This document shows, one piece after another, positions 7,446 through 64,000 of a DNA stretch of 64,000 nt (position 1 is its first letter; the number at the start of each line of letters is the position of its first letter). The notes below the pieces were generated by a model, which made no database searches, was not told the origin of the DNA, and saw only the letters and a list, made by a program, of their open reading frames with translations. The stretch covers positions 29 through 64,028 of the forward strand of contig PDQY01000100.1 in NCBI GenBank assembly GCA_002746795.1, read 5' to 3'. A program made the translations under genes and the position numbers. The DNA comes from Chloroflexota bacterium. Lineage in GTDB: Bacteria; Chloroflexota; Anaerolineae; Promineifilales; Promineifilaceae.

Positions 7446-7540
7446 AGGAGTGACAATGAAAGGCGACATTGTATCGTCAGTTTCAAGGAACGGTAAGGGA
7501 ACGACTTCGTCGTCTTATTTATTTAATTCCCGTTCCTAAG
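7446..7540 (+). repeat. SIR, A-type
   Basis: GGAGTGACAATGAAAGGCGACATTGTATCGTCAGTTTCAAGGAACGGTAAGGGAACGACTTCGTCGTCTTATTTATTTAATTCCCGTTCCTAAG, lying between the GT2 stop and the cyclase start. Confidence 0.75.
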
Positions 7541-8446: not shown

Positions 8447-8550
8447 CTTGTTGAGTGACCGTCTAGAAATAATATCCCTGTTTACAGATGGTCAGGTCGC
8501 TTGAAACACATCCAGCAATTCCGTATTTTATTTCACCGTCACTCCTTAAG
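8447..8550 (-). repeat. SIR, hybrid copy, inverted orientation
   Basis: The reverse complement reads CTTAAGGAGTGACGGTGAAATAAAATACGGAATTGC...ATTTCTAGACGGTCACTCAACAAG. Its terminal CTTAAG contains the kinase stop codon. Confidence 0.65.
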
Positions 8551-11862: not shown

Positions 11863-11959
11863 CTAGTGCGCATCCATAAATAAGTGATGTAATTGATGGA
11901 TGCGCTTCCAGTGACCTTTCCCCTGAAAAACGGGGAGTAGTTTTTAGACGGTCACTAAG
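11863..11959 (+). repeat. SIR, B-type
   Basis: CTAGTGCGCATCCATAAATAAGTGATGTAATTGATGGATGCGCTTCCAGTGACCTTTCCCCTGAAAAACGGGGAGTAGTTTTTAGACGGTCACTAAG. Nearly identical to 63047-63139. Confidence 0.8.
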
Positions 11960-32944: not shown

Positions 32945-33928
32945 TCAACTACTTTGTTGTTTATAAGCGTTGGCTCCCACAGACAGAACACCATGTTTTT
33001 GAGGCTTTTGGGAAACAGTATATTCCTTCGAGAGCATGCCATAACGCGGCCCCCCAGCTACTAAGGAGGTAATGGATATTTTGGCTTGAGCAGGTAAATG
33101 GCTGCGAGCATATTGGTAAATTGCATTGACATCCACTTTAACCGGATCCAGCAGCAAGCCAAGCACACTGCCACAATGTGTTCGACATATTCCCAAAGCA
33201 GACACAGATTTGGCAAATTTTAATGTTTTATCCAGAAAAGGGTTAAACACTATCTTTTGTTGAGCTGTCGCGCTCAACGTGGACGCTCTACCGACCATTT
33301 CCCAATCTCTGAAAAGTAGACCTTGTTTCAAAAAAGCAAAAGCGATTTGATGGGTGGGAGCCAACTCTTTTAAGGTGTTTTGGTAATCTTGTTTGTGGTA
33401 TTTGATTGGATCCACAACCTTGCCCGGGTCAATGACGATGACGATTAACGGCGGGGTTTCGGGAAACGATTCGATTAAATGACCATTGATAGGGTCAAAC
33501 ATCGCTAAACCAGAAAACAAGGTGCTGTCAGTTGACTCGATTTGGGTGGCAAGAAGCGAAGCCTGGTTTGGCGGTAACGGCCGTTCACAAGCCTGAGCCA
33601 AGGCATACAAAACAGCACCAATATCAGCCGTACTAGAGCCATATCCACGACTCCTGGGAATCGCCGTATCAATGGAAAAACGGCCGTGACTTTGTTCACG
33701 ACCCAACCAAGCCAGGCCAGCTAATAAAGCCTGGTTCGCTTTCAAAAATTGAGGCTGCTGTTGCGCGCGCAGTTTAGCCCGAGAAACTGTAACCGTAGCC
33801 GTACTATACTGATCAATAGGGCAAGACACCAAACAAGGCCGTCCTTGCCAGGTTCCCTGCACAAGTTCGCCACACGCTGCCGGAATAGCAGCAACGGCCG
33901 TTTTCTGGATGCTGTTTATCGTATTCAT
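32945..33928 (-). CDS. pduX: L-threonine kinase (PduX, GHMP family) for the cobalamin aminopropanol linker
   Basis: IPAACGELVQGTWQGRPCLVSCPIDQYSTATV resembles the N-terminal PduX signature as I recall it (from memory, unchecked). GHMP box PRSRGYGSSTAD. Confidence 0.7.
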   Translation of the reverse strand: MNTINSIQKTAVAAIPAACGELVQGTWQGRPCLVSCPIDQYSTATVTVSRAKLRAQQQPQFLKANQALLAGLAWLGREQSHGRFSIDTAIPRSRGYGSSTADIGAVLYALAQACERPLPPNQASLLATQIESTDSTLFSGLAMFDPINGHLIESFPETPPLIVIVIDPGKVVDPIKYHKQDYQNTLKELAPTHQIAFAFLKQGLLFRDWEMVGRASTLSATAQQKIVFNPFLDKTLKFAKSVSALGICRTHCGSVLGLLLDPVKVDVNAIYQYARSHLPAQAKISITSLVAGGPRYGMLSKEYTVSQKPQKHGVLSVGANAYKQQSS

Positions 33929-33949
33929 GATTAATTTGAATGCGCCCTC

Positions 33950-33980
33950 AAAACAAAAAACCCCTGTTATTTGACAGGGG
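33950..33980 (-). terminator. intrinsic terminator (expression platform of the riboswitch)
   Basis: The minus strand reads CCCCTGT-CAAATA-ACAGGGG followed by TTTTTTGTTTT. It lies between the riboswitch and the pduX start. Confidence 0.6.
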
Positions 33981-34039
33981 TAAGATCACCTTGGCTCCAA
34001 GGGTCACATATCCACCTCTCTATCCTCGAAGAAAATGGT

Positions 34040-34185
34040 TACATAAATCAGGCGGGCGACCTGGCTTTCAGCAGTATTTTCTCCTGCCGACTACAGTTGC
34101 GGGACAGCGCCGGACTGCAAAAAAATTGTTACCGGCTTCGCCTTTCAGCCTTCCCATCCGGGGGTGTAGGCACCTTGATTTATCA
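34040..34185 (-). promoter_or_regulatory. cobalamin (B12) riboswitch
   Basis: The minus strand reads AAGGTGCC..GGGAAGGCTGAAAGGCGAAGCCGGT..TCCGGCGCTGTCCCGCAACTGTAG..AAAGCCAGGTCGCCCGCC. The conserved GCTG.CCCGCAACTGT core and a B12-box-like AGCCAGG.C.CC.GCC are present in the right order. Confidence 0.75.
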
Positions 34186-34257
34186 AATTGGTTTATAAAG
34201 TACAACTGGGTGATAAATTATCACCCACTTCATCACAACTGATGTTTGTCATCAATT

Positions 34258-36171: not shown

Positions 36172-36432
36172 CAAAAACTCCTTTATAGGGTTTCGTAGGT
36201 GGGCATTGAGGCGACCAAAGCTCAATGGCAAATGACAAACTTTGATCCCCGATCATTCATCTTTCATCAACACTCATTCTACTCACAAAAAAAACATCAG
36301 ATCAACCGTATAAATAGAGCTGCCCTGGATATACGTCCAGTCATACCCAGGGCAAACGGCTGCTTTCTAGGATAAATACCCAAGAAAAAACTATCTGCCA
36401 AATTACACTATGTGCGCCTCCATAAACAAGTC

Positions 36433-36498
36433 GCGGAATTGCATCGTTAGTTTCAAAGAACAGTTAAAGAAACGACTTCGTCGTATTATTTAATTTCC
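36433..36498 (+). repeat. SIR, A-type, truncated copy overlapping the gldA stop
   Basis: GCGGAATTGCATCGTTAGTTTCAAAGAACAGTTAAAGAAACGACTTCGTCGTATTATTTAATTTCC. The last 9 nt are the final codons of gldA (GGA AAT TAA on the minus strand). Confidence 0.65.
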
Positions 36499-37584
36499 TT
36501 TGCGCTGCCGTCCTTCAGCATCAGCAGCCTTCAGAGCCGCAAAAACCATCTCTGGTGTCACCGGAATCGGTTCATTGTAAATCGTTTCCCCTTCCGCACA
36601 TGCTTGTTTGGCCACGACCATCAAATCCTCATCCGAAACATTCTCCAAACCAATTTCAGCTAACGTGGTAGGCAAACCAACTTCTTCACAGAACGTATAC
36701 ACTTCATCAATCAAATCGGCTGGCTTGTCAGTTAAGAACAACGAAGAGACCACCCCGATAGCCACTTTTTCCCCGTGCCAATAATGGTGAGTATCTGCCA
36801 GAGCCGTCAACCCATTATGAATGGCATGGCAAGCAGCCAAGCCCCCACTTTCAAAGCCCAAACCACTCAACAACGTATTCGCCTCAATCACTCGTTCCAA
36901 AGCAGGCGTCACCACCTTGGCTTCACATGACGCTTTCGCCACTGCACCATATTCCAAAATGGTCTCATAGCAAAAACGAGCCAAATTGCGGGCAGTCATG
37001 GAGCCAACATCGCCAGTCATATTGCCACCATAGCTGCGTTCGCAAGCATCAGCTTCAAACCAGGTAGAGAGTGCGTCACCAATACCCGCAACCAAGAAGC
37101 GTACTGGCGCCTCCGCAACAATACGAGAGTCAACCAACACAACATCAGGATTCTTGGGCAGAATAAGGTAACGTTTAAAGACACCTTCTGGCGTGTAAAT
37201 GACAGAAAGCGCACTGGTGGGAGCATCTGTAGAGGCAATAGTGGGCACAATAATGACAGGCAGCCCCAGCGCATGCGCCGTGCCTTTAGCTGTATCTAAT
37301 GCCTTCCCGCCACCAATGCCAACAACCACTTTCGCATCAGCTTCTTTCACCATTTTAGACAGACGTCCGATTTCTTCATCAGAACATTCTCTGTTAAACG
37401 ATTCAACAACAATTTTGACCTCCGCTTCCACATCACTCTGAAAACGAGGTAACAATTCTTCATTTACAAATGGATCTACAATCAGAAAAGCAGTATCGCC
37501 AAAACGAGCCGCTTCTTTTCCTAAACGTTTGGTCGCTTCATATCCTTGAATATAGCGTCCAGGGAATATAGTTGTGCTAATCAT
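36490..37584 (-). CDS. gldA: glycerol dehydrogenase (Fe-ADH family III)
   Basis: Collinear with E. coli GldA: GIGGGKALDTAKG, PTIASTDAPTSALSVIYT, GIGDALSTWFEA, HYWHGEKVA. Confidence 0.85.
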   Translation of the reverse strand: MISTTIFPGRYIQGYEATKRLGKEAARFGDTAFLIVDPFVNEELLPRFQSDVEAEVKIVVESFNRECSDEEIGRLSKMVKEADAKVVVGIGGGKALDTAKGTAHALGLPVIIVPTIASTDAPTSALSVIYTPEGVFKRYLILPKNPDVVLVDSRIVAEAPVRFLVAGIGDALSTWFEADACERSYGGNMTGDVGSMTARNLARFCYETILEYGAVAKASCEAKVVTPALERVIEANTLLSGLGFESGGLAACHAIHNGLTALADTHHYWHGEKVAIGVVSSLFLTDKPADLIDEVYTFCEEVGLPTTLAEIGLENVSDEDLMVVAKQACAEGETIYNEPIPVTPEMVFAALKAADAEGRQRKGN

Positions 37585-37613: not shown

Positions 37614-37709
37614 AAGACTGACGATGAAATAAAATGCAGAATTGCATCGTCAGTTTCAAAGAACGGTAAGGGCACGACTTCGTCGTATGATTTAATTTCC
37701 GTTCCTCAG
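37614..37709 (+). repeat. SIR, A-type, full copy
   Basis: AAAGACTGACGATGAAATAAAATGCAGAATTGCATCGTCAGTTTCAAAGAACGGTAAGGGCACGACTTCGTCGTATGATTTAATTTCCGTTCCTCAG. Confidence 0.8.
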
Positions 37710-37963
37710 CAAGCATCTAGCAAAGCTTGCTCAAAACAACGAATAAAACACAGATTAACATAGATTATCACAGATTACAATGCCCCTAGCTACGTCATCT
37801 ATGTTGCGCTGTGAGCCTACTGAAAAAAAGGGTCACAAAGGCCAAAATGGGATGCTTTGCCAGCGAACTGGTAACGATATCCAGGCTCTTGGACAACCCA
37901 GATTTTTTTCTTTTATCTTGGTAAAGTGCTATCAGGTTTTTAGCTAAGAAACAACAACCACAG

Positions 37964-47531: not shown

Positions 47532-48038
47532 TTACTTCAAAACATCACGGGCCTCGTACACGTCGGCTGCTTCACGAACAAAGTTGGCGCATACTTTGGC
47601 TCCGTATTCGGTTTCCAGCTCATCAGCGATGGCTAATAGTTCTGCTTTAGTCGAACGGTTGGGTCGCAGAGCATTATACATTTCCAAAACGCGGGCGTCG
47701 GGAACATTGGTCAATTCACCAGCGCGGCGCATATTGTTCGCCAACTGCGGCCGGGAGATACTGTCAGCAATTTGAGCCTGATAATCCAGAGTCTGCGGCG
47801 TGATGCGAATTTCTTCAGCTTTGACCTCGCCAGACATGACAGCATCCAGGGTGATATCATTCAGGCTTTTACCAGTAGCTGTTTTCACCAGTTCTGGCCG
47901 CTTTTCAGACAGCGGATAATCAGTTTTGTAGCTCAAAGTGTTTCCGCTTGCCGCTGGGGCAGGCGTATGCTCATTCCCACCATTCAACTCCGAGAGAACC
48001 TCTTTCACGATTGCAGCAATCATATCTTGTTGTGACAT
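47532..48038 (-). CDS. pduE: diol dehydratase small (gamma) subunit
   Basis: 168 aa with SGEVKAEEIRITPQTLDYQAQIA. N-terminal helix QQDMIAAIVKEVLSEL. Confidence 0.85.
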   Translation of the reverse strand: MSQQDMIAAIVKEVLSELNGGNEHTPAPAASGNTLSYKTDYPLSEKRPELVKTATGKSLNDITLDAVMSGEVKAEEIRITPQTLDYQAQIADSISRPQLANNMRRAGELTNVPDARVLEMYNALRPNRSTKAELLAIADELETEYGAKVCANFVREAADVYEARDVLK

Positions 48039-48049
48039 CTTTATTCTCC

Positions 48050-48727
48050 TTAGTTGAATTGGATATCCAGATCCATCGGCGGCTTGTCCTTGTCAACAAA
48101 CTCAGTTTCCCGAATGTGGTAGACAGCGGCGATAGCTTGATACTTGGGGCGAGCCATTTGGTCACTGTATTGCTCAACCGGTGGCGGCGAATCACCTTTA
48201 GCATAACGTGCCGCGTTCCGACCAATGTCACGGTAAGTTTCCAGCGAGATGACAGGAGCCTGCGGGAACAACTCAATATTCTGCAACGGCTGCAAGTCAC
48301 GTTGGTGGATAACCGTTGTGCCCCGTGATTGGATGGATATAGCAATGCCCGAGCCGCTCAACTCTGCACCACATTTGCCCACAAAAGCCACATCAGAGGT
48401 ATGCCACACGCGAAGGATGCGGGGCTTTACACCCTCCTCTTCGATACCAGCCATCAGTTCACGGAGAACGGCCGCATGGGGAATACCCGTAATCGTGCGT
48501 CTCTTCAATTTATCGCCAAAAGCAGGTGCCAGCGCGATCACAACCTCGTCAGAAGAAGTGCCTTGCTGTGCTTCGCCGACTTCACGAATCGTCATGTCAG
48601 CAACAGCATAATCCTCCTTGGCAGCGGGTACAGCAGGAGCTGCTGGGGCAGCATCGTTGCCATTGGCAACTTGCGCCAAAATCTCTTTTACAACTTCCCG
48701 CACGACAGCTTCAGATATTTGTGCCAT
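48050..48727 (-). CDS. pduD: diol dehydratase medium (beta) subunit
   Basis: 225 aa. N-terminal encapsulation-type helix [16 protein letters not shown]. Core [10 protein letters not shown]...[10 protein letters not shown]. Confidence 0.9.
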
Positions 48728-48736
48728 TAGAACCTC

Positions 48737-50404
48737 CTAAATGTCCTCTGGGCTAATCGCATGACGGATATTGGATAGTTGTTTCCAACGTTCGCCTTCC
48801 AGACGATAGCCAGTACCCGGCCCCTGGTAATCATTCAAGTCATTGATGGCTGCAACCACATTGAAATCTTTATCCAGGACTGCGGACGTATGCAAATAGT
48901 CACCCGAAACGCGCTGTTTTTGCACATTCAGAATCGCTTCGGCCACTTCGGGATAACCATTCTTTGCCAATGCTTTGATTACATCCACCCCGGTGATACC
49001 ACGCTTCACAATGTCCTGCGCGGCTTTCGTGTCTTGCACCTTGTCACGCGGCGGCATATCGTGGCTGCCATGAGCGTAGGTGGCTGCTTCCACTTCTTCA
49101 TCAGTGATGGCTGGTAACCCTAATTCAATGAAAACCACTTGTAAGGCTTTGGCCGCTTTGTTACGAATGGCGATGATTTCATCTTCACTCACAGGGCGTA
49201 ACCCACCATCCACTTTCAGGTCGCGCTGGAGCGTGAGGAAATCGTCATAGTCATCGGAATCAAAGTTAGACCCGGCAAACACGTTGTCATAGTTAGGCAC
49301 AGCGCTGTAACCAGAGAAAATGAAGTCGGTGCCGGGCAAGAACTGCCCCATCAACCGCGCTGTGCGGCGGAATGGGGAGTGAGAAAAAGTTTGGTCGTTG
49401 CCGGATGCTACCTCCAGGTCAAGGCAGGTGGTCACCAGGTTTTCAGCCACAACCGCGCGGATACCGCCAGGCACGCCAGCGGGCACACCAATGCAGCTAA
49501 TGGAACCATTCTGCAAACCTTGTACACCGGCTGCTTTGGTAATCATGATGCATTTGATTTCCAGGTAGAGCATCGACTTGCCATCGGCATAAGCCATTTG
49601 GACTTCGGAACCGGTACCAGAGGTGAAGCGCATCTTCAAACCACGAGAAGCGTAAGCCGAGGCCAGGAATGCTTTCGACCAGGGAGTGTCATCCCCATCT
49701 TTGAAAACTTGTTCAGTGCCATAAACGGAGACGGTTTCAGCATAAGCGGTTAGGCCAAGCATGCCAAGCTGCAATTCTGTCGCTTCCTCCAAAGCATCCT
49801 GGCTCAACGCACCAGGACGGCCTGTTTGACCGCCAACCAGCAAACAAACTGCATTCATCGGGCCGTAGTTGAACACAGCAACAGTGGTTTCAATTTCATC
49901 AAAGCCGTAGTAGGTGGCTTCGGCAGCGTCTGCTGCCAGCAGAACGGGGTTGTCTTGAATGTTGGTAACATGAGCCTGGTTGCCAGGGGTACGACGCGCA
50001 CGCATTTTTTGCATGCCCATCATCATTTCGACAACGTTCAACTCATCCATAACGGCCGCAATTTTTGCTGGGGTCAAACCGGAGAAAACTTTGATTACTT
50101 CGGTGCGTGGTACGTTGATATCTACAATTTTACGAGCGATCTCCACACAGGGAATCGCCATCATTTCTTCAGCGCGACTTGTGTTGATGGCGTAATTGGC
50201 GATGAAGAGTTCGTTGAAATCGAATTCTTCGCGCTTCTTGCCATCCATCTCCACAATGACACCATTTTGCACTTTGACGCTGGGTGTGGGATCGTTAGGG
50301 CTGCCCATGGCAATCAAGCCAACGTCAGCCCATTCGGTGACGTAGCCATCTTTGTTGACTGCCCGTTCATCCATCACTTCAAATCTTTTTTGTCGTCTAG
50401 CCAT
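48737..50404 (-). CDS. pduC: B12-dependent diol/glycerol dehydratase large (alpha) subunit
   Basis: 555 aa. N-terminus MARRQKRFEVMDERAVNKDG. Collinear with PduC/DhaB1. Strong RBS GGAGGAGGTGG. Confidence 0.95.
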   Translation of the reverse strand: MARRQKRFEVMDERAVNKDGYVTEWADVGLIAMGSPNDPTPSVKVQNGVIVEMDGKKREEFDFNELFIANYAINTSRAEEMMAIPCVEIARKIVDINVPRTEVIKVFSGLTPAKIAAVMDELNVVEMMMGMQKMRARRTPGNQAHVTNIQDNPVLLAADAAEATYYGFDEIETTVAVFNYGPMNAVCLLVGGQTGRPGALSQDALEEATELQLGMLGLTAYAETVSVYGTEQVFKDGDDTPWSKAFLASAYASRGLKMRFTSGTGSEVQMAYADGKSMLYLEIKCIMITKAAGVQGLQNGSISCIGVPAGVPGGIRAVVAENLVTTCLDLEVASGNDQTFSHSPFRRTARLMGQFLPGTDFIFSGYSAVPNYDNVFAGSNFDSDDYDDFLTLQRDLKVDGGLRPVSEDEIIAIRNKAAKALQVVFIELGLPAITDEEVEAATYAHGSHDMPPRDKVQDTKAAQDIVKRGITGVDVIKALAKNGYPEVAEAILNVQKQRVSGDYLHTSAVLDKDFNVVAAINDLNDYQGPGTGYRLEGERWKQLSNIRHAISPEDI

Positions 50405-54399: not shown

Positions 54400-54666
54400 C
54401 TTAACAAATGAATGCAGATGCTTCAATGGGTATTTACATCCGTGTGCGTTCTACGAATGTTTGTAGTACGTGCTTTAGCACGTAAAGGCGCACTAAAGTA
54501 TGCTCGAATGTTTGTAGTACGTGCTTTAGCACGTAAAAGTGCACTAAAGTGCACACTACGAACTTTGTGGTATGTGCTTTAGCACGTAAAGGCGCACTAA
54601 AGTGCGCACTACGAACTTTGGCGGGCTTTAGTGCAAGGGTATCTGGTCTCTTTTGTTAATCTCGAA
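54400..54666 (+). promoter_or_regulatory. conserved leader element, copy 2 (three to four palindrome units), upstream of ackA
   Basis: CTTAACAAATGAATGCAGATGCTTCAATGGGTATTT. Then repeated units ACGAATGTTTGTAGTACGTGCTTTAGCACGTAAAGGCGCACTAAAGTGCGC. Then GGGTATCTGGTCTCTTTTGTTAATCTCGA. Confidence 0.6.
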
Positions 54667-55929: not shown

Positions 55930-56748
55930 ATGAATCCAGGAATCAACCATATTCTCGAGCAAGCAGCAACCATTTTCAACCACAAACCAGCCGTGGCAAA
56001 CTATACCGGTACGGTACATGTAGGTGTCGATTTAGGAACAGCGTATACCGTGTTAGCAGTGTTGGATGAGGAGAAACGGCCGTTAGCCGGACGCTATCAG
56101 TTTGCCCAAATCGTACGGGATGGTCTCGTTGTCGATTTTATTGGTGCTATTCAACTGCTCAAGCAAATGAAGGCAGAGGTTGAAGCTGAATTGGGATTTC
56201 AACTAGAACATGCCGCCACGACCTACCCCCCCGGCGTGCCCCTGGCTGAAGTAAAAGCAACGCAAAATGTACTCATTGGGGCTGGGCTAGAATGCAGCCA
56301 ATTTGTGGACGAACCAACTGGCGCCAACGCCCTGTTGAACATCGCAGATGGCGCCATCGTAGATATTGGCGGCGGCACAACAGGTATCGCCATCGTCGAA
56401 CAGGGCAAAGTTATCTACACAGCCGACGAAGCCACAGGCGGCACCCATTTCTCACTAGTCGTGGCTGGCGCCATGAATGTGCCCTTCATTGAAGCCGAAA
56501 AAATCAAGAAAGATGCCACCCAGGCGCGTATGGTCTCCTCGCTGGTGCATCCTGTGATGCAAAAAGTGGGCAGTATTGTCGCCCGCCACATCGAAAAATT
56601 TAACGTGGGCACAATTTACCTGGTGGGTGGCACAAGCAGCCTGTTGGGGATTGATGAGGTCATTCACGAGATCACTGGGGTGAAAACAATCACGCCATCC
56701 CATCCTATGTTTGTCACACCGCTTGGCGTAGCCATGGTGGATCGATGA
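55930..56748 (+). CDS. eutJ: EutJ-family actin/Hsp70-fold protein
   Basis: VGVDLGTAYTVLAV and IVDIGGGTTGIAIVEQGKVIYTADEATGGTHF. Confidence 0.8.
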   Translation: MNPGINHILEQAATIFNHKPAVANYTGTVHVGVDLGTAYTVLAVLDEEKRPLAGRYQFAQIVRDGLVVDFIGAIQLLKQMKAEVEAELGFQLEHAATTYPPGVPLAEVKATQNVLIGAGLECSQFVDEPTGANALLNIADGAIVDIGGGTTGIAIVEQGKVIYTADEATGGTHFSLVVAGAMNVPFIEAEKIKKDATQARMVSSLVHPVMQKVGSIVARHIEKFNVGTIYLVGGTSSLLGIDEVIHEITGVKTITPSHPMFVTPLGVAMVDR

Positions 56749-56783
56749 ACGGAGGTCAGGGGAGCGATGACTGACGAGGGCTT

Positions 56784-58229
56784 ATGGCGGAAAAGTTAAT
56801 CATCATTGGTGGCGTTGCGGCGGGAATGAGTGCCGCCGCGAAGGCACGACGAGTCAATCCCGATTTGGAGATTGTGGTTTATGAGCAGTCGGGCTACATC
56901 AGCTATGGCGCTTGTGGATTCCCCTACTTCATCAAGGGTGATATTCCTGCCGTTGATGATTTGATTTCGCGTACCCCAGCGCAAATGGCAAAACAAGGGA
57001 TTACGGCGTTGGTTCACCATGAAGTGACAGCTATCCATCCTGCCCAGCAAACAGTGCGTGTTTTGAATCACAAGACGGGAGCCGAATTCACAGATCGGTG
57101 GCACAAATTGATTTTGGCAACAGGTGCCAGAGTGACAAAGCCGCCCATTCCCGGGATCCAACTGCCGGGTGTATTTACGCTGCGCACGGTTGAAGATGCT
57201 GTGGCAATACGGAAGTGGCTGGTTGAGGAAAAACCGAAGCAGGGTGTTATTGTCGGCGCGGGTTATATCGGCCTGGAGATGGCGGAAGCGCTGCGTGCCC
57301 ACGGGGTGGATGTCACGATTGTCGATATGGCAGCACAGGTGATGCCAACGCTAGATGCTGACATGGCTGAGTTTGTGCGCGATGAATTAGCAGCAAATGG
57401 TGTGAAGATTTGTTTGCAGCAGCCTGTAAAGTCATTTGTGGGACCGGCGCAAGTAGAAGATGTGGTGCGGCAGGTGACAACCCACGTGCAAAACCATGGC
57501 GACACGCTCAGCAGCCACAAGCTTAACGGCCGTTTTCGCATCCGTGAAGTGGTGACCCCAAACCATGTGTTCCCTGCTGACATCGTGATCTTTGGAGTAG
57601 GCAGCCGACCCAATACAGCCATAGCGGAAGCGGCGGGCATACGCCTCGGTACTACAGGTGCTGTGGCGGTAGATGTGGAACAGCGAACCAGCATACCACA
57701 CATTTGGGCGGCAGGGGCGGTTGCGGAAGTTTTCCATCTGCCATTGCAAACTCACACGTATATCCCGCTGGCGCTAACGGCGAACAAGCAAGGGCGAATT
57801 GCAGGCAACAACGCAGCAGGAGGAGCTGTGGTTCGATTTGGCGGCGTGGTGGGAACGGCCGTTGTCAAAGCCTTCGATCTCACCATTGCCCATGCCGGTC
57901 TCACAGAAAAATATGCAGCGATGCATGGCCTGGAAGCGGAGAGCGTCTTGATCAAAGCTTCATCTCGCGCTCACTACATGCCAGGCAGCGAGCCGATTCA
58001 TGTCAAGCTCGTTTACGAGAAGAACACACAGCGGCTTTTAGGGGCACAGATGATCGGCAAAGATGGCGTGGCAAAACGTATCGATGTCGTTGCGGCGGCT
58101 CTCAAATCGGCCTGGACTGTGCGTGACATCGCCAACCTTGATTTGGCGTATGCGCCGCCGTTTGCCCCCGTCTGGGATCCGCTTCTCGTCGCTGCAAATG
58201 TGGCTTTGCGTCAGGCAAAGTCGCCATGA
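56784..58229 (+). CDS. FAD-dependent pyridine-nucleotide-disulfide oxidoreductase (CoA-disulfide reductase / NADH oxidase family)
   Basis: IIGGVAAGMSAAAKARR, single redox-Cys segment ISYGACGFPYF, second Rossmann fold VIVGAGYIGLEMAE. Confidence 0.75.
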   Translation: MAEKLIIIGGVAAGMSAAAKARRVNPDLEIVVYEQSGYISYGACGFPYFIKGDIPAVDDLISRTPAQMAKQGITALVHHEVTAIHPAQQTVRVLNHKTGAEFTDRWHKLILATGARVTKPPIPGIQLPGVFTLRTVEDAVAIRKWLVEEKPKQGVIVGAGYIGLEMAEALRAHGVDVTIVDMAAQVMPTLDADMAEFVRDELAANGVKICLQQPVKSFVGPAQVEDVVRQVTTHVQNHGDTLSSHKLNGRFRIREVVTPNHVFPADIVIFGVGSRPNTAIAEAAGIRLGTTGAVAVDVEQRTSIPHIWAAGAVAEVFHLPLQTHTYIPLALTANKQGRIAGNNAAGGAVVRFGGVVGTAVVKAFDLTIAHAGLTEKYAAMHGLEAESVLIKASSRAHYMPGSEPIHVKLVYEKNTQRLLGAQMIGKDGVAKRIDVVAAALKSAWTVRDIANLDLAYAPPFAPVWDPLLVAANVALRQAKSP

Positions 58230-58303
58230 TTTTTATAACTGCGGAGATACAGGGAACGTGGCGCGTTGTCTGGTTTCCTCTGCGGTAAAAAAAGGGGGTT
58301 CCC

Positions 58304-59737
58304 ATGTTTAACGCATCCTCGAAACCATTTGCCGCGAAAACGCCAGGGACCATTGACCTGGAGATTTCAGACCCTGTCTTGATGCTCAATGAAATTGCCA
58401 AGCGGTATGAAACGACCGAACGGGTCTTGATGGAGTATGTGGACAATGCCTTGGATGACGCTGAGGCTTTGTTTCGTGAAGGCGGACAGGCGTATCCATA
58501 CCCCATTCGCCTTGACATCACCATTGACCGCGCCCGCCGCGCGGTCTCCATCCAAGATAACTGCCGGGGGATGACGCGAAGAACATTGGAGCGCGTGGTG
58601 AGCCATATTGGTGAATCTCAAAAGCGGGGACAAACATGGGTAAACGGCCGTTTCGGTTTTGGTGTTCACGCCTTCAGAGCTGCGGCCACGTCAGTCAGCT
58701 TCCAAACCAGGCACGAACTTAGCTCGCACCACACCTTGACTGTGCCGCGCGACCAGCACCGTGGCATCAAAGAAGCCAAACGAGTTGATGCGCCGTTTCC
58801 CACCGACCGTGGTACCGGCTGCATCGTGACGGTGGCTGGTTTTGCCTCGGATTGGTTTCAGTCAGTAACGGTTGGCTCCATTCGTGCGGAAATTGAGCAT
58901 CATTTTGAGCGGCTCATAGCTCGACCAAACCTACACATCGCCGTCCATGAGCCAAATCAACCATCCCAGGTTTGCATGGCATTTGACTATGCCGCCATCG
59001 ACGGCATTTCTATCCAGCACGTTTTACATGTGAATTATAAAGATGGTGATTTTCCGGTGGTAGTCTATTGCAAAATCGCAGCAGAGCCCCCGGCAAAGCG
59101 TCCGGTTAGCTTTTTTGCTCGGGATCGCCGCATTGGGGATGTAGCGGAAATCAAATCATTCATGCGGAAATCACGGCACAAGACCAGCGTGTGGAGCCAT
59201 CCCAACTTGTTGGGCTATATCGAAGTAGGGAATTTGGTGCAGCCCATCATCAATCGAGATGATTTTGTGCGCAGCCGCAGCCGCACGCTGCTTTATGAGA
59301 CGTTGCTGCCCATTGAGGCGGAAATCAAGAAAAAGCTGCAAGGGGTCAATGAGCAACAGCGCGAGCAAACATTTGGTCAATTTGAAGAAGTGGTGCAGCA
59401 AGCATTAGCTGAAGTGGTGGCCGATTCTAATTTAGATGTAGCGTTTGTCACCGGCGGGGAAGAGAGACGAGTGACAGTGGAAAACGGCCGTTTAGCCATC
59501 AACACCATGCATCCAGATTTTCAAGCCAGATTACGCATCACGCGCCAAGGCAATCCCCGCCCATCTGATCGTTTGTATGCTTACCTGGCCAGTATTTTGT
59601 CGGTGTATGGCATCAGCCAACAAACAGCTCACACCAAGAAGCTAAACCCAGAAACCAAGATTGACCTTCAAATTGAAATGATGTTAGCTTTGGAAATGCA
59701 GCTGCGGCAATTGCAGAAAAAAGCGCAAAGAGGATAG
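58304..59737 (+). CDS. GHKL-superfamily ATPase (Hsp90/MORC-like HATPase_c_3 type), function unknown
   Basis: Bergerat-fold motifs in order: LMEYVDNALDDAE (N box), SIQDNCRGMT (G1) and NGRFGFGVHAF (G2). C-terminal helical region. No obvious partner gene. Confidence 0.6.
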   Translation: MFNASSKPFAAKTPGTIDLEISDPVLMLNEIAKRYETTERVLMEYVDNALDDAEALFREGGQAYPYPIRLDITIDRARRAVSIQDNCRGMTRRTLERVVSHIGESQKRGQTWVNGRFGFGVHAFRAAATSVSFQTRHELSSHHTLTVPRDQHRGIKEAKRVDAPFPTDRGTGCIVTVAGFASDWFQSVTVGSIRAEIEHHFERLIARPNLHIAVHEPNQPSQVCMAFDYAAIDGISIQHVLHVNYKDGDFPVVVYCKIAAEPPAKRPVSFFARDRRIGDVAEIKSFMRKSRHKTSVWSHPNLLGYIEVGNLVQPIINRDDFVRSRSRTLLYETLLPIEAEIKKKLQGVNEQQREQTFGQFEEVVQQALAEVVADSNLDVAFVTGGEERRVTVENGRLAINTMHPDFQARLRITRQGNPRPSDRLYAYLASILSVYGISQQTAHTKKLNPETKIDLQIEMMLALEMQLRQLQKKAQRG

Positions 59738-59774
59738 ACCGGCGCCCTCTTCATTGGGTGGAGGTAAAGCTGTG

Positions 59775-61400
59775 CTAAACGGTGACGTTTTTTTTCTTTT
59801 GGCGATATGTGGCGGGAGTCATGCCTGTATGTTTTTGGAAATGGCGGTAAAAGTTGGTGGTGTTCGGGTAACCCACCATTTCTGAGATACTAGCAACGCT
59901 CTTATCCGTGGTGCGCAGCAGCTTTTTCGCATTGTCCATGCGTATCGCCGTTAAATACTTAACATAACTAGTGCCAGTTCGTGACTTGAACTGCGAACTC
60001 AAATGAGATTGGCTCAAATTCACTTCATCTGCGACTTGCTGTAGTGAAATATTTGACCTTTGATAATTTTCCTGGATGTAGGTAATCGCCAATTGAATGG
60101 GATCCTGGCGTTGTGAACGAGCTGGCACGAGCGCCATCAGTTCTGTCAGGCTATTGAGTGTCCACGCGCGCAGATCAGGCACCGTTTTCCAAGAACTCAG
60201 AACCCGCACTTGTTGGTGCAGCAGCGCCAGCACAGTTGGCTCATTCGTGCCCGCGCCAATGACACCCCAGGCCACCAGCGTTACCAGCTCTGCACAATGG
60301 TTGCGCATGACATCTGGCCGTGTGTAATATCGCTGGGAAAGGTAATCGACTATTTCGTTGATAAGCCGCTGCGCTTTCTTCATCTGGTTAGACTCCACAA
60401 CTTGCACCAGTTCACGCTCTTTTTGCACCAGATAACGGGCGCTACTCTCTCCTTGCGGCTGTTCTTCGACGGTATCACTCAAGTCAACGACACGATTACC
60501 TGGCGAACGGCTGTGGTAACGCCGAGCCAAGTTTGCTTCTGCGTAGGAAAGGGGAATCGATTCATACCCCATGTAGCGTTTGCCCATACCAATGGTGACG
60601 GTAAAAGGCAGGTTATCAGCGATGGTCTGACGCAGTTGCTCACAAAATGTGCGAATTTGGTCTGGTTTTGCCAACGATTGTTCCGTTGAGACGATAGCGA
60701 CGACACGGCCTGGGTTGCTGTATCCCACCAGCGCTCTATTTGCATCAGGAAGCTGCCTGCGAATCAACTGAGCCAGATCGGCATACACTTGTTTTGGCGC
60801 TACTTGAGGATAGGTTTGCGTGAATTGATCAAAGTTATCAATTTTGGTCACAAGGACAACAGGCCACACCAACCGCTTGCCCAAATAACCGAGTGATTCA
60901 TCGACTGTCGAACCTTCTGGGTTAGTGCCTCGAATGAGATTTTCCACGAGATTGGTCTCAATGACAGGCATTGTTTTTTGCAAGGAATCTTTGACGATTT
61001 CTACGGTGCGCATCTCACGTTTTTCAGTCTGGATTTCCTGACGGATTTCAGCCAGCAGCTGCAATAGTTTTTGAGGACGAACTGGTTTCAAAATGTAATC
61101 ACGAGCGCCCAGTTTAAGTGCTCTTTGGACGTAGGCAAATTCGTTGTAAGCTGTGAGCATGACGATTTTAACATCAGGCTGTTCTTGCTGGATGATGCTA
61201 GTGGCTTGCAGCCCAGTCAGCCCAGGCATTTTGATGTCCATCAGGATGATGTCTGGCTTGTGATTGCGTGCCAGGGAAACAGCTTCCTCCCCATTGGCAG
61301 CTTCTAAGACGGGAGAAAAAAGATCTTTTTGTTGAGAGATGATGCGGGTCAAAGTGGACCGGATTACCGGCATATCATCAACAAGTAAAATGCTAGTCAT
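59775..61400 (-). CDS. response regulator with AraC-type HTH output (YesN-like)
   Basis: Receiver domain ILLVDDMPVIR..DIILMDIKMPGLTG. C-terminal AraC HTH ISEMVGYPNTTNFYRHFQKHTGMTPATYR. Confidence 0.85.
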   Translation of the reverse strand: MTSILLVDDMPVIRSTLTRIISQQKDLFSPVLEAANGEEAVSLARNHKPDIILMDIKMPGLTGLQATSIIQQEQPDVKIVMLTAYNEFAYVQRALKLGARDYILKPVRPQKLLQLLAEIRQEIQTEKREMRTVEIVKDSLQKTMPVIETNLVENLIRGTNPEGSTVDESLGYLGKRLVWPVVLVTKIDNFDQFTQTYPQVAPKQVYADLAQLIRRQLPDANRALVGYSNPGRVVAIVSTEQSLAKPDQIRTFCEQLRQTIADNLPFTVTIGMGKRYMGYESIPLSYAEANLARRYHSRSPGNRVVDLSDTVEEQPQGESSARYLVQKERELVQVVESNQMKKAQRLINEIVDYLSQRYYTRPDVMRNHCAELVTLVAWGVIGAGTNEPTVLALLHQQVRVLSSWKTVPDLRAWTLNSLTELMALVPARSQRQDPIQLAITYIQENYQRSNISLQQVADEVNLSQSHLSSQFKSRTGTSYVKYLTAIRMDNAKKLLRTTDKSVASISEMVGYPNTTNFYRHFQKHTGMTPATYRQKKKNVTV

Positions 61401-61409
61401 ATCTGTTTC

Positions 61410-61507
61410 TTAAGGACTAACGATGACATAAATAGGGATTTGCATCGTCAGTCTCAAGGAACGGTAAGGAAACGACTTGGTCGTATGATCGAATTCCCGT
61501 TCCTAAG
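61410..61507 (+). repeat. SIR, A-type, full copy
   Basis: CTTAAGGACTAACGATGACATAAATAGGGATTTGCATCGTCAGTCTCAAGGAACGGTAAGGAAACGACTTGGTCGTATGATCGAATTCCCGTTCCTAAG, lying between the kinase stop and the regulator start. Confidence 0.8.
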
Positions 61508-61580
61508 CGTCACCGCTCAGACTTGACTGGCTTCTCCTAGAGGGATGGCCTGTGGGTCTTGCGGGACTGAACGTTTATTT

Positions 61581-62942
61581 TTAGCCTAGTGGTGTTAAGA
61601 GTTTGTTATCATGGTTTACTGGGGTGGTTTTGTTGATTTGAATGTGGGACAGGTTGATTTGATTGCCCAATGTTTGTGAGATAGCGGATTCTCTCTCTGC
61701 CTCCCCATTGATACTAGACTCTGATTCTGAATCTAAATCAATGTTAAGGCGCAAGCGGGTGCCGAGGTTAGCGAAGCTGGTAACATGACAGCTAAACTGG
61801 CTGCCATATTCACTTTGTAGTCGTTGAAAGACATTATGAATGCCCAAAGATTGACCATCATCCTCAAAATGCCCAGATTCGATGGTTTCAACAACATCTG
61901 GCGGCATACCAACACCATCATCATGAACTTCGAGTGTTAAACGGCCGTTTTCCTGGTAGGCGTTGACGGTAATCGTGACAGGACGCATCAATGGTTCTGC
62001 TCCATGAATAACTGCGTTTTCCACAAGTGGTTGCAAGACCATGCAAGGAATTTCAAAGTGAGCCAGACCAGGCGCTAAATTGATCACCTTGTTCAAGCGA
62101 TCTCCAAATCGAATTTTTTGAATTGTCAGGTATTGATCAATCATCTCAATTTCTTCACCCAGTTCTACAACAGAAGACATATTGCGCAAGCTGTATCGTA
62201 ACAAATCGCTGAGGGTATAGGCAATCTCTTCAGTCCGTGGTGCGCCTTCTTCCAGCGCAGTATATCCAAGCAAAGTCAACGAGTTGAAGAGAAAATGAGG
62301 ATTGATTTGTGCTTTTAAGGCCTTAATTTGGGTTTCTTGCAAAGCAGCTTGCAGGGCAGCGCGTTCCTGGGCTTCTTTTAAGAGTTGTTTTTGAGCCATG
62401 TTGGCGGCGCTATTTTGCATGATGTTATTCGCTGTCAGGGATAACATCTCTACAGCAGACTCAAACCGTTCACGGGAGAGCGGCTCCATCTTGCGTACTT
62501 CTGCTTCAAATGCTTCTGCCGGCAGGCCAAGGGGAAGATTTCGTTCCACAATGTCTTGAATGAACGCTTCTCTTTCATCAGTGGGAATCACTTGCCCACA
62601 CAATATACAGCCCACGTATTCACCATCAATGATGATCGGGGCAGCGGCATCTAATAAGCCACCAGCACATTTGTAAGCGTAGGGCTTTTCAAGTTCATGG
62701 GCAATACGTCCCCCCTCAGCATCACACCGCTGGCAGCGTGCTAATCCAGTTTTAGTGGATCGGATCATATTACACACGGTGCAAAAGTTACTGGCTTCGG
62801 TAATGGTTTTGCCATTGCAATCTACTGTCACGGCAGCCACGCCCATGGCTTCAGCAAAGGAGTCTTGGAGTTGTTGGAGCAATTTGAGGTCGATGAGATC
62901 TGCGATCAGAATATTGGTTTCTTGTTCTTGCGGGTTTTTCAT
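61581..62942 (-). CDS. PocR-domain sensor histidine kinase (YesM/LytS-type His_kinase + HATPase)
   Basis: N-terminal PocR sensory domain LQQLQDSFAEAMGVAAVTVDCNGKTITEASNFCTVC...CQRCD. H-box region QINPHFLFNSL. HATPase ENAVIHG..DDGVGM. Confidence 0.85.
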   Translation of the reverse strand: MKNPQEQETNILIADLIDLKLLQQLQDSFAEAMGVAAVTVDCNGKTITEASNFCTVCNMIRSTKTGLARCQRCDAEGGRIAHELEKPYAYKCAGGLLDAAAPIIIDGEYVGCILCGQVIPTDEREAFIQDIVERNLPLGLPAEAFEAEVRKMEPLSRERFESAVEMLSLTANNIMQNSAANMAQKQLLKEAQERAALQAALQETQIKALKAQINPHFLFNSLTLLGYTALEEGAPRTEEIAYTLSDLLRYSLRNMSSVVELGEEIEMIDQYLTIQKIRFGDRLNKVINLAPGLAHFEIPCMVLQPLVENAVIHGAEPLMRPVTITVNAYQENGRLTLEVHDDGVGMPPDVVETIESGHFEDDGQSLGIHNVFQRLQSEYGSQFSCHVTSFANLGTRLRLNIDLDSESESSINGEAERESAISQTLGNQINLSHIQINKTTPVNHDNKLLTPLG

Positions 62943-63009
62943 GCGAGCCTCTTCCTGAAACGCGTCATCCGCTTAAAGCACATCCTTCCGCGAGGAATAT
63001 CACTTGCTT

Positions 63010-63250
63010 TTCAGAAAGGGGATCTGGCTTAGTCGTAGGCGTACGGGCGCATCCATCAATAAGTGATGGAATTGATAGATGCGCTTCAAGTGACCTTTCC
63101 CCAGGAAAAACGGAGATTCGTTTTTAGACGGTCACTAAGAAACGGCCATTTAGTAAATCGTAATTTACTCGACTTCACAGTTGCGGGACAGCGCCGGTAT
63201 TTTTGCCGCAGAGCAAAGCACCGGACTTCACCCTTTATTACCAATGGCTA
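63010..63250 (-). promoter_or_regulatory. cobalamin-riboswitch-like leader interrupted by a SIR-B repeat
   Basis: The minus strand reads GGTAATAAAGGGTGAAGTCCGGTG..ACCGGCGCTGTCCCGCAACTGTGAAGTCGAG, then about 125 nt, then ACGACTAAGCCAGATCCCCTTTCTG. The 21-nt core 63177-63197 is identical to 34093-34113. Confidence 0.55.
63047..63139 (+). repeat. SIR, B-type, inside the riboswitch-like leader
   Basis: GCGCATCCATCAATAAGTGATGGAATTGATAGATGCGCTTCAAGTGACCTTTCCCCAGGAAAAACGGAGATTCGTTTTTAGACGGTCACTAAG. Confidence 0.8.
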
Positions 63251-63537
63251 ACAAATAATGCCATCAGCGAATGTTCAATTACTTGCCATTATAAATGATC
63301 ATGATTGATTAAGACAATATTATCTTGATATGTTGATATTTGCTGCCTGCCGCCACCGTTCATGCCGCATACAGGCTGAATGGCGGGGATGTGTATCGGG
63401 AACAGGAATTGGCGGTTAAGAAATGAGTAAGAGTTGCCCTACGATAACGGCCGTTCTTTTGGTCATCTGCCCGTTTTAGCTATAATGCCCGACGTAGTTC
63501 GTAACACGGAGAAAACCCTAGACGCCTGGGAGGATAG

Positions 63538-64000
63538 ATGACAGGAAAGAAAAAGATGATGCTATTGATGCTATTCTTGGTGGGAACGGCCGTTGTGCTG
63601 CTCTTGCTGGCCACCCCCATGATGCTCAAAGCAATCCCGCCCCGCTACCTGTCCCGCTTACCCCAGCCCATTCAAGACCTGCGTACCCCCAAACAAGAAG
63701 TCGCCATTCTCCCCACCGTAGCTGTCCCCGCAGACCTGACCATTTTGTTCACGCCCACACCCACGGCCACAAAAATGCTGCCGCCAACCAACACATCGGT
63801 GCCAGCACCCCAAGAATATACGCCTACACCGCCGCCAACCTCCACCTCCATACCACCAACCTTCACCCCTATTCCGCCCAGCGCCACACCGGTGTCTATT
63901 CCCAACCAGGCCAGGCTAGAAGGCATCTCCCACATGTTCCAGGAATGGAACAACTGCGGCCCAGCCACCTTAGCCATGACCCTCACCTATTTTGACATCC
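63538..64000 (+). CDS. C39-like peptidase domain protein (N-terminal part; continues beyond window)
   Basis: My own translation; the track omits it because it is open at the window edge. ATG 63538 follows GGGAGGA. MTGKKKMMLLMLFLVGTAVVLLLLA TM helix, PT-rich linker, then FQEWNNCGPATLAMTLTYF (catalytic Cys box of the peptidase_C39-like family). Confidence 0.6.
   Translation, partial: MTGKKKMMLLMLFLVGTAVVLLLLATPMMLKAIPPRYLSRLPQPIQDLRTPKQEVAILPTVAVPADLTILFTPTPTATKMLPPTNTSVPAPQEYTPTPPPTSTSIPPTFTPIPPSATPVSIPNQARLEGISHMFQEWNNCGPATLAMTLTYFDI

Follow-up and report, generated by a model that had tools for sequence, protein, structure and literature searches.

A putative family of atypical cobalamin riboswitches, possibly ON switches, in the leaders of PocR-kinase operons of Chloroflexi

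The locus and its leader

Could a riboswitch for vitamin B12 (cobalamin) act in cis to switch on the regulator of a B12-dependent pathway? This question is raised by a stretch of Chloroflexota DNA of 64,000 nucleotides (nt; contig PDQY01000100.1, hereafter the window), which carries on its minus strand, at about 36.5-52.9 kb, a complete and B12-dependent pdu operon comprising PduCDE (47532-50404), a reactivase, PduL, PduN, a PduO-type adenosyltransferase, PduP, PduS and shell proteins. On the same strand lie the genes of a PocR-domain sensor histidine kinase and then of a receiver/AraC-type response regulator, with a 600-nt divergent intergenic region upstream of the kinase gene. The kinase sequence is 100% identical to a protein from a Chloroflexi metagenome-assembled genome, and one contig with an orthologous kinase is labelled Promineofilaceae. 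Here, we analyse the 5' leader of this kinase/regulator operon. The reading that we favour, with a little more than even confidence and on the grounds of sequence comparison, is that the leader belongs to a genuine but atypical family of cobalamin (corrinoid) riboswitches standing before PocR-kinase/AraC operons and acting as ON switches. The operon and its leader consist of the following features.

59775-61400, minus strand: response regulator of 541 aa, with a receiver and an AraC-type helix-turn-helix domain (domain search)
61581-62942, minus strand: PocR-domain sensor histidine kinase of 453 aa, with the domains PocR (2.5e-49), His_kinase and HATPase_c
62943-63281, minus strand: predicted 5' untranslated leader of the PocR-kinase operon, about 339 nt including a repeat, its start site being placed from the promoter
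63288-63317, minus strand: sigma-70-like promoter TTGTCT-18 nt-TATAAT, 10 of 12 matches, with the -10 box at 63293-63288

Based on the position of the -10 box, transcription is predicted to start near 63281.

A cobalamin-type aptamer in the leader

A previous reading of the window, made from the sequence only, had noticed the 5' half of a riboswitch in this leader, and this half is indeed present on the minus strand at 63240-63171 (UAAUAAAGGGUGAAGUCCGGUG...ACCGGCGCUGUCCCGCAACUGUGAAG). Its 21-mer CCGGCGCTGTCCCGCAACTGT at 63197-63177 is identical, as had been stated, to 34113-34093 of a canonical riboswitch in the same window. The B12 box AAGCCAGATCCCC is also found in the leader, although the range given for it, 63018-63031, was one base too long, the actual box occupying 63030-63018. 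The core nucleotides GGUGAAG, CCGGUG, GCUGUCCCGCAACUGUGA and AAGCCAGAUCCCC match those of cobalamin riboswitches. From 5' to 3', the leader can be divided as follows.

63231-63236, minus strand: 5' strand of P3, AAAGGG, pairing with CCCUUU at 63020-63015
63194-63230, minus strand: J3/4 (UGAAG) and the P4 hairpin, CCGG 63224-63221 pairing with CCGG 63197-63194
63217-63213 with 63206-63202, minus strand: inner stem of P4, UUUGC with GCAAA, in which all five pairs change on both sides
63181-63190, minus strand: P5 and L5, with the pairs U63190-A63182 and G63189-C63183 and L5 UCCCG at 63188-63184
63140-63180, minus strand: 5' side of P6, with CUG 63180-63178, stem AGUCG 63174-63170, a sub-hairpin at 63169-63152 and the loop segment AUGGCCGUUU
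63047-63139, minus strand: 93-nt structured repeat in distal P6, with two hairpins, folding alone at -36.3 kcal/mol
63018-63046, minus strand: 3' side of P6 and B12 box AAGCCAGAUCCCC (63030-63018), with CGACU 63035-63031 and CAG 63026-63024
63007-63021, minus strand: 3' strand of P3 (63020-63015), extended to a 15-nt strand complementary to the region of the ribosome-binding site (RBS), hereafter the anti-RBS strand, CCCCUUUCUGAAAAG
62984-62995, minus strand: invariant 12-mer CCUCGCGGAAGG, read as P13 (CCU/AGG) and loop L13 (CGCGGA)
62969-62979, minus strand: segment GCUUUAAGCGG, pairing with the 12-mer (UCGC-G-GAAG) or with CUCGC beside the start codon in free-energy folds of the window and of the orthologous leader L082
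62940-62962, minus strand: RBS region CGUUUCAGGAAGAGG (62962-62948; GAGG 62951-62948) and the AUG (62942-62940)

P1 is short or ambiguous in the window, where 63259-63250 with 63008-62999 are candidates, and it is clear in the orthologous leaders L085, L100, L104, L112 and L128; the search for P1 by duplex folding was noisy, with promoter sequence included in the input.

At the gathering score, a search of the window with RF00174 returns a single match, the canonical riboswitch at 34034-34193 with 49.8 bits. In a relaxed search, sub-threshold matches are obtained for the leader of the window and for four orthologous leaders. The search with RF00174 that had been proposed gives, with the repeat in place, a match of 23.9 bits (E = 4e-4 on 551 nt), which stays below the gathering score of 31.5 and has the B12 box misplaced because of the insert. 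Infernal puts the box on GCGCCCGUACGCC, in or beside the repeat, a placement which was rejected, since the repeat-free orthologs align the box to AAGCCAGAUCCCC. The comparison with natural repeat-free leaders, which had also been proposed, is clearer: L082 scores 27.8 bits, with its B12 box aligned on AAGCCAGAUCCCC, where the sequence-only reading had put it.

Orthologous leaders were collected by identity look-ups of kinase homologs and by a metagenome scan for GCCAGAKCCC-N15-42-CCTCGCGGAAGG. Of the 40 loci from the scan, 16 (11 distinct sequences) are real leaders, and the remaining 24 were rejected as chance matches within GC-rich coding sequence. The resulting set contains 21 leader sequences, 20 of them distinct when the window and the near-identical L103 are counted as one; an additional leader, L134, was read separately. 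All the leaders share one order of motifs, namely GGGUGAAG-nCCGGUG, GCUGUCCCGCAACUGUGA, a hairpin, AAGCCAGAUCCCC and, 19-39 nt further on, CCUCGCGGAAGG, and all have an open reading frame for a PocR kinase downstream. The members come from Anaerolineae-type Chloroflexi, and their kinases are only 56-81% identical. When the 5' regions were read by eye, a perfect TATAAT was seen upstream of the core in most orthologous leaders.

Nineteen leaders were aligned, with the repeat of the window excised, on a hand-drawn structure consisting of P3, P4, inner P4, P5, P6, P13 and the kissing loop. In this alignment, 92.3% of the cells form standard pairs, compared with 39-51% when the partners are slid, and 14 pairs change on both sides, a number reached by none of 500 shuffles and compared with 5-7 in the slid controls. 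P3 covaries across the family (GAGGG/CCCUC, CAGGG/CCCUG, AAGGG/CCCUU), P5 occurs as G-C, A-U and G-U, and all five pairs of P6 covary, while the conserved core GGUGAA, GCUG-YCCCG-CAACUG and AGCCAG, together with the B12 box, is invariant. A covariance model built from the same alignment recognises canonical cobalamin riboswitches with 49.6 bits (window, 34016-34147), 51.8 bits (L131:7069-7191) and 40.9 bits (L133), all with E <= 2e-10, and its cross-matches are all cobalamin riboswitches. The model also finds the leader of the window across a 100-nt insert with 123 bits, a match by construction, the window being in the training set. Covariation and family-model matches bear out the earlier claim that the 5' leader of the PocR kinase/AraC operon holds a cobalamin-type aptamer in the sense direction.

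The L5 of the family agrees with the published consensus UCCCG (PMC10327014). As in the class II cobalamin riboswitch, P6 is a simple short hairpin, of 18-35 nt in 14 leaders and of 47-52 nt with one side hairpin in the relatives of the window. Some class II members are known to miss J1/3 (PMC6158498). Judging from these sequences, we conclude that the leader is a divergent member of the cobalamin clan, with a short P6 as in class II, devoid of the long peripheral extension, and a weak or variable P1/P2.

The element is absent from the relative L084, within the 289 nt available, and from the Chloroflexaceae ortholog L133, where a canonical cobalamin riboswitch (L133:2622-2769, 54.2 bits) lies upstream of the PocR kinase but faces the divergent cobT-cbiM-cbiQ genes. 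No related leader was found at ten Firmicute PocR-kinase loci (L001-L010). A scan of a genome collection with the kinase alignment gave no Chloroflexi orthologs; its patterns fell in the generic histidine-kinase core and hit mostly unrelated kinases of Firmicutes and Acidobacteria. Another canonical riboswitch (L131:7026-7167, 46.4 bits) is situated before cobT, 2.6 kb downstream of the kinase-regulator pair.

The invariant 12-mer

Of the 19 aligned leaders, 18 have the 12-mer CCUCGCGGAAGG (62995-62984) without any change, and it follows the B12 box by 19-39 nt; the exception, L132, has CUUCUCGGAGAAAGG, in which CGGA is retained. The 12-mer can fold into a hairpin of 3 bp (CCU/AGG), to which 0-3 further pairs may be added, with CGCGGA as its loop. 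In validated kissing loops, four bases are paired and a C is bulged in L5 (PMC10327014), and L5 UCC(C)G of the family can pair with CGGA of L13 as U-A, C-G, C-G, bulged C and G-C. A hairpin is found at the equivalent place in canonical riboswitches of the clade, and its loop tracks their own L5, with UCC and GGA in the canonical copy of the window versus UGC and GCA in the paralog L131:7026. From these sequences, we infer that the 12-mer is the P13/L13 kissing partner of L5. The terminal loop of P4 (UCUGCG etc.) was also considered as the partner of CGCGGA and rejected, the loop being variable and often non-complementary.

Three expression platforms

In 18 of 19 leaders, 36-49 nt separate the 12-mer from the start codon. 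Three layouts occur, here called types T, R1 and R2. Type T (L085, L087, L088, L095, L097, L098, L130, L131 and L132) has a GC-rich hairpin followed by a U run; measured from the end of the 12-mer, this hairpin starts at -2 to +2. Among the eight type T leaders with the standard 12-mer, the stem shares 1-5 nt with P13 in seven and none in L098, always without a spacer; in L132, the hairpin is deviant and the terminator stem starts within it. By comparison, 37, 48 and 54 nt separate the P13-like hairpin from the terminator in three canonical riboswitches of the clade, a distance at which an antiterminator would fit, as in the validated OFF model. An antiterminator of the metE type, that is, a P13 3' strand whose sequence would allow pairing with the terminator's 5' arm, was sought in the type T leaders and not found, nor was any upstream sequence complementary to a terminator arm found in the PocR-type leaders with a terminator.

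One of the canonical riboswitches is that of the window (33926-34193 region, 49.8 bits), which precedes a gene for a GHMP-family kinase (32945-33928), possibly a PduX-like protein, i.e., an L-threonine kinase. Its intrinsic terminator (ACCCCUGU...ACAGGGGU-U6) is located 37 nt after the P13-like hairpin, unlike in the PocR-type leaders.

The other 10 of the 19 aligned leaders, including that of the window, are free of terminators and appear to act on the RBS. In type R1 (L100, L102, L104, L112, L128, L116 and L083), CCUCGCGG of the 12-mer pairs with the RBS (GCGAGG, CCGUGAGG, CGAGG or UUGUGAGG) and GGAAGGA pairs with UCCUU downstream. The duplexes reach -11.6 to -16.3 kcal/mol (z = -2.0 to -3.2), and complementarity between 12-mer and RBS is missing from most type T leaders. 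In type R2, which comprises the window, L082 and L081, CCCCUUUCUGARAAG, i.e., the 3' strand of P3 and the bases that follow it, pairs with CKUUUCRGRAAGAGG. The pairing of CCCCUUUCUG (63021-63012) with CAGGAAGAGG (62957-62948) at 9 of 10 positions, which had been pointed out before, is part of this duplex, since it extends to 13 of 15 positions in the window (63021-63007 with 62962-62948); the match is 14 of 15 in L082 and 15 of 15 in L081. The energies are -17.3 (window), -18.3 (L082) and -19.4 kcal/mol (L081), with z = -3.4 to -5.5, and the value of the window compares with -8.0 +/- 2.8 kcal/mol for shuffles. The R2 pairs are present in the minimum-energy folds.

When the aptamer and P13 fold is forced, the unpaired probability of the RBS goes up in 9 of the 10 terminator-less orthologs; for the window, it rises from 0.20-0.27 to 0.52, whether the repeat is included or not. 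The segment GCUUNAAGCGG (62979-62969) can pair, in the window and L082, either with the 12-mer or with (C/U)CGC-AUG at the start codon.

An upstream open reading frame of 14 codons (62981-62940, MCFKRMTRFRKRLA*) begins right after the 12-mer (GGAAGG), and its UGA overlaps the AUG of the kinase (AUGA). Analogous frames with an AUGA-type ending exist in L082 and L116, but not in L081 or the other platform classes. This frame was dropped as a mechanism because of its too short Shine-Dalgarno spacing and its absence from those leaders.

The 93-nt repeat in P6

The repeat that had been described as splitting the switch in the variable P6, at 63047-63139, is confirmed there and is absent from the repeat-free ortholog L082, the kinase of which is 80% identical. 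Where L082 reads ...GAACGGCCGUUU|CCCACGACCACGACUAAGCCAG, the window reads ...AAAUGGCCGUUU[93-nt repeat]CCGUACGCCUACGACUAAGCCAG. Among the orthologous leaders, only those of the window and L103 have the repeat, and the contig of L103 is 99.57% identical to 56090-63927. Within the window, the repeat is about 90% identical to 11868-11959, and partial copies of its second module occur at 2027-2045 and 8451-8469, none being expected by chance. As in REP/MITE-like repeats (repetitive extragenic palindromes/miniature inverted-repeat transposable elements), it is an element of about 93 nt with two hairpins and several intergenic copies in the genome; unlike them, the copy studied here lies inside a riboswitch helix, and neither a transposase nor terminal inverted repeats nor a target duplication could be identified.

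Measured from CAACUGUGA to GCCAGA, the P6 stretch spans 18-52 nt in 17 of the orthologous leaders and 87 nt in L081; its 146 nt in the window are due to the repeat only. When the aptamer helices are enforced, the hairpins of the repeat persist as a branch of P6. For the full leader, the aptamer fold costs 14.2 kcal/mol with the repeat and 10.6 kcal/mol without it, the range in the family being 9-20 kcal/mol; when only the aptamer domain is folded, the insert raises the cost from 6.2 to 13.6 kcal/mol. It is therefore plausible, as far as the folding models go, that the repeat is tolerated as a P6 branch.

The RNA strand of the repeat contains at 63093-63104 CCUGGGGAAAGG, a look-alike of P13 (CCU-GGGGAA-AGG) resembling the 12-mer CCUCGCGGAAGG, the G-rich loop of which could pair with L5 (UCCC:GGGA). 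This look-alike might be a decoy, or it may be a coincidence.

The repeat was inserted directly after GGCCGTTT. The palindrome ACGGCCGT is also present in the P6 loop of most orthologous leaders. It occurs 53 times in the 64 kb of the window (e.g., at 63447, 63586, 33894, 41903 and 44631), compared with about one expected from base composition, and there are 43 copies of AACGGCCGTT; ACGGCCGT has the appearance of a highly iterated palindrome of the lineage.

Proposed mechanism and alternatives

The mechanism that we propose is as follows. Without B12, 63021-63007, i.e., the P3 3' strand with the following bases, would base-pair with 62962-62948, the RBS region, so that translation of the kinase is blocked. 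When B12 is present, P3 would form together with the kissing complex of P13 and L5, the RBS would be released and the kinase/regulator pair would be made. This two-component system would then induce pdu on its own signal, presumably 1,2-propanediol. An ON switch would in this way make the availability of B12 a precondition for expressing the B12-dependent pathway. The 93-nt repeat would be an insertion in the length-variable distal part of P6, with its own two hairpins, and is probably tolerated as a branch.

Because the anti-RBS strand is the P3 3' strand (AAAGGG 63236-63231 with CCCUUU 63020-63015), sequestration of the RBS and the ligand-bound fold are mutually exclusive, which argues for an ON layout and not for the translational-OFF layout assigned in the sequence-only reading. 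The orthologous platforms agree: all three layouts point to ON logic, because the strand that blocks expression, or that is needed by the terminator, is used by the ligand-bound fold. The apparently counter-intuitive logic that had been remarked on, a B12 OFF switch on the presumed activator of a B12-requiring pathway, would also vanish, since the regulator would be made only when B12 is present. In our judgement of these models, the sign is somewhat more probably ON than not; it should be noted that we infer the sign, the ligand and the tolerance of the repeat alike.

Several observations weigh against this reading. The family members score only 20.7-27.8 bits with RF00174, none reaching 31.5, and P13 with the kissing loop is invariant in the family and so has zero internal covariation. 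The overlap of P13 and the terminator is small (0-5 nt), which makes an antiterminator role for P13 plausible, not compelling. The evidence of the R2 type comes from three closely related leaders. The accessibility under a forced fold leans to ON, because locking part of an RNA removes partners of the remainder, and when P13 alone is forced in the platform of the window, folded by itself, the accessibility of the RBS is unchanged (0.50 vs. 0.51). The segment 62979-62969 would permit a three-element OFF scheme. Finally, when the full leader is folded without constraints, a part of the repeat is paired with linker and 12-mer, so that the insert could interfere.

In a classical OFF switch, B12 would stabilise P13 and the kissing loop, which would free GCUUUAAGCGG (62979-62969) for pairing with CUCGC-AUG and the RBS, or let the terminator form in orthologs. 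Cobalamin riboswitches are described in reviews as OFF switches for B12 synthesis and transport (PMC11477304), the segment does pair with the 12-mer in the platform fold of the window and with CCGC-AUGAA at the start codon in L082, and P13 and the terminator could stack coaxially where no bases are shared (L098). However, the strongest partner of the RBS is the P3 3' strand, which is unavailable in the bound fold, and in seven leaders the 12-mer itself is the partner of the RBS. Type T leaders have no spacer for an antiterminator between P13 and the terminator, and L081 has no second, alternative partner near the start codon. Moreover, a cell would have no evident benefit from shutting down, in the presence of B12, the activator of a pathway that depends on B12. 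Consequently, we regard an OFF switch as unlikely.

It is likewise improbable, in our view, that the leader is a disabled relic in this genome, in which the repeat broke the folding of P6 or traps the linker and the 12-mer, with the kinase constitutive or constitutively low. A P6 of 146 nt is far outside the 18-52 nt of 17 orthologs, UUUUUCCUGGGGAAAGGUCACUU of the repeat pairs with AAGUGAUAUUCCUCGCGGAAGG in the unconstrained fold, the repeat contains the look-alike of P13, and the cost of the fold for the aptamer domain alone would fit such a loss. However, the hairpins of the repeat are very stable (-36.3 kcal/mol) and emerge earlier in transcription than the linker, which should let local folding prevail; for the full leader with the repeat, the aptamer fold has a cost inside the family range; and P6 varies naturally in length, up to the 87 nt of L081. 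Every conserved motif is intact, and the insertion is common to two strains, but these differ at only 0.43% of positions, too little divergence to speak on decay, so that the intact motifs are uninformative in this respect.

It is very improbable that the leader descends from a cobalamin aptamer but senses another ligand (e.g., cobinamide or a non-corrinoid), or that it binds a protein or the ribosome: the scores under the Rfam threshold, the weak or variable P1/P2, the short P6 and the fact that the sole known activating corrinoid riboswitch responds best to cobinamide (PMC10327014) would fit, but the core nucleotides are of the cobalamin type with 21 nt identical to a canonical riboswitch of the same genome, the cross-matches of the family model are to cobalamin riboswitches throughout, and the genomic context is a B12-dependent pathway.

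Returning to the ON switch, its fullest form would be a directly activating, sub-threshold family that includes the first translational ON corrinoid switches, acts in cis as a B12 licence for the pdu regulator and is functional with the repeat in P6. Taken together, this combination seems possible from our modelling, at slightly less than an even chance.

Relation to known systems

To our knowledge, positive control of pdu and eut regulators by B12 is known only via the AspocR antisense RNA and the EutX/Rli55 sponge. In Listeria, an OFF riboswitch reportedly terminates the antisense transcript AspocR from the 3' end of pocR. EutX/Rli55 of Enterococcus and Listeria is said to be a small RNA with a B12 riboswitch, of a class II-like type with a short P6, that sequesters the response regulator EutV in trans. 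The present family resembles AspocR in that the availability of B12 gates the regulator of B12-dependent pdu genes, and EutX/Rli55 in the positive riboswitch control of a two-component-regulated, B12-dependent microcompartment pathway and in the short-P6 aptamer. It differs from both, as the sequence-only reading had recognised, in having the aptamer in the sense 5' leader, in cis. The regulator is a PocR-domain kinase with an AraC-type response regulator, in contrast to the one-component PocR of Listeria, and, compared with EutX/Rli55, the control is proposed to be direct, on the synthesis of kinase and regulator. In the literature, AspocR of Listeria monocytogenes is described as a B12-riboswitch-controlled antisense RNA of pocR, and B12-dependent activation of pocR and eut has been selected by indirect routes (PMC9943018).

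Procknow et al. described the first activating corrinoid riboswitch in 2023, upstream of cobT in Alkalihalobacillus halodurans (PMC10327014). In this switch, L5 and L13 join in a kissing loop with a bulged C, and P13, itself the antiterminator, excludes the terminator (PMC10327014). The family is predicted to share with it this kissing loop, a P13 that would act as the antiterminator through a 3' strand contiguous or shared with the 5' arm of the terminator, and the ON sign. It differs in that the shared stretch is only 0-5 nt, that 10 of 19 leaders are terminator-less, and that the target is a two-component regulator. With the canonical RF00174 riboswitch at 34034-34193, it has in common the B12 box, the P3-P6 four-way core, L5 UCCCG, the 21-nt core and a downstream hairpin with a CG-N-GGA loop. 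The differences are the scores (20.7-27.8 vs. 49.8 bits), the weak or variable P1/P2 and short P6, a target that regulates a B12-using pathway instead of a gene of B12 synthesis or uptake, and terminator or RBS elements that overlap the ligand-stabilised helices instead of lying 37-54 nt off.

In the literature that we searched, we found no report of a sense cobalamin riboswitch before a PocR-type two-component system or in Chloroflexi pdu loci, and no translational ON corrinoid switch turned up. Only one natural activating corrinoid riboswitch had been described before (2023). For the present family, an ON sign would mean that direct activation by B12 evolved independently, that platforms acting on the terminator and on the RBS are both used with one conserved aptamer/P13 module, and that the switch stands at the top of a regulatory cascade. 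Because every member is under the Rfam gathering threshold, routine annotation would miss this conserved clade of Chloroflexi riboswitches. The insertion is a natural experiment on the size tolerated in P6 of an aptamer, and the three platform types offer material for reporter tests and for engineering B12-inducible switches.

Other features of the locus

Between the kinase and regulator genes, 61430-61508 is a copy of a second family of small repeats (about 79 nt), with other copies at 7459-7537 and 37632-37710, shorter ones at 36424-36508 and an inverted one at 611-685. The gap between the two genes measures 180 nt here; in most orthologs it is 0-20 nt, and in L085 it is 99 nt. With this copy between the genes and the 93-nt repeat in the leader, the kinase/regulator operon has thus been struck twice by small repeats.

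The gene at 58304-59737, which faces the response-regulator gene in convergent orientation, encodes a HATPase_c_3 protein of 477 aa. L081, L082, L084, L085, L088, L130 and L132 have this neighbour too, so the synteny is conserved.

In addition, 54460-54616, between the genes for an alcohol dehydrogenase and an acetate kinase, consists of three units in tandem, which are 51-53 nt long and all contain inverted repeats (GTGCTTTAGCAC, GCGCACTAAAGTGCGC); these units could be binding sites of a regulator.

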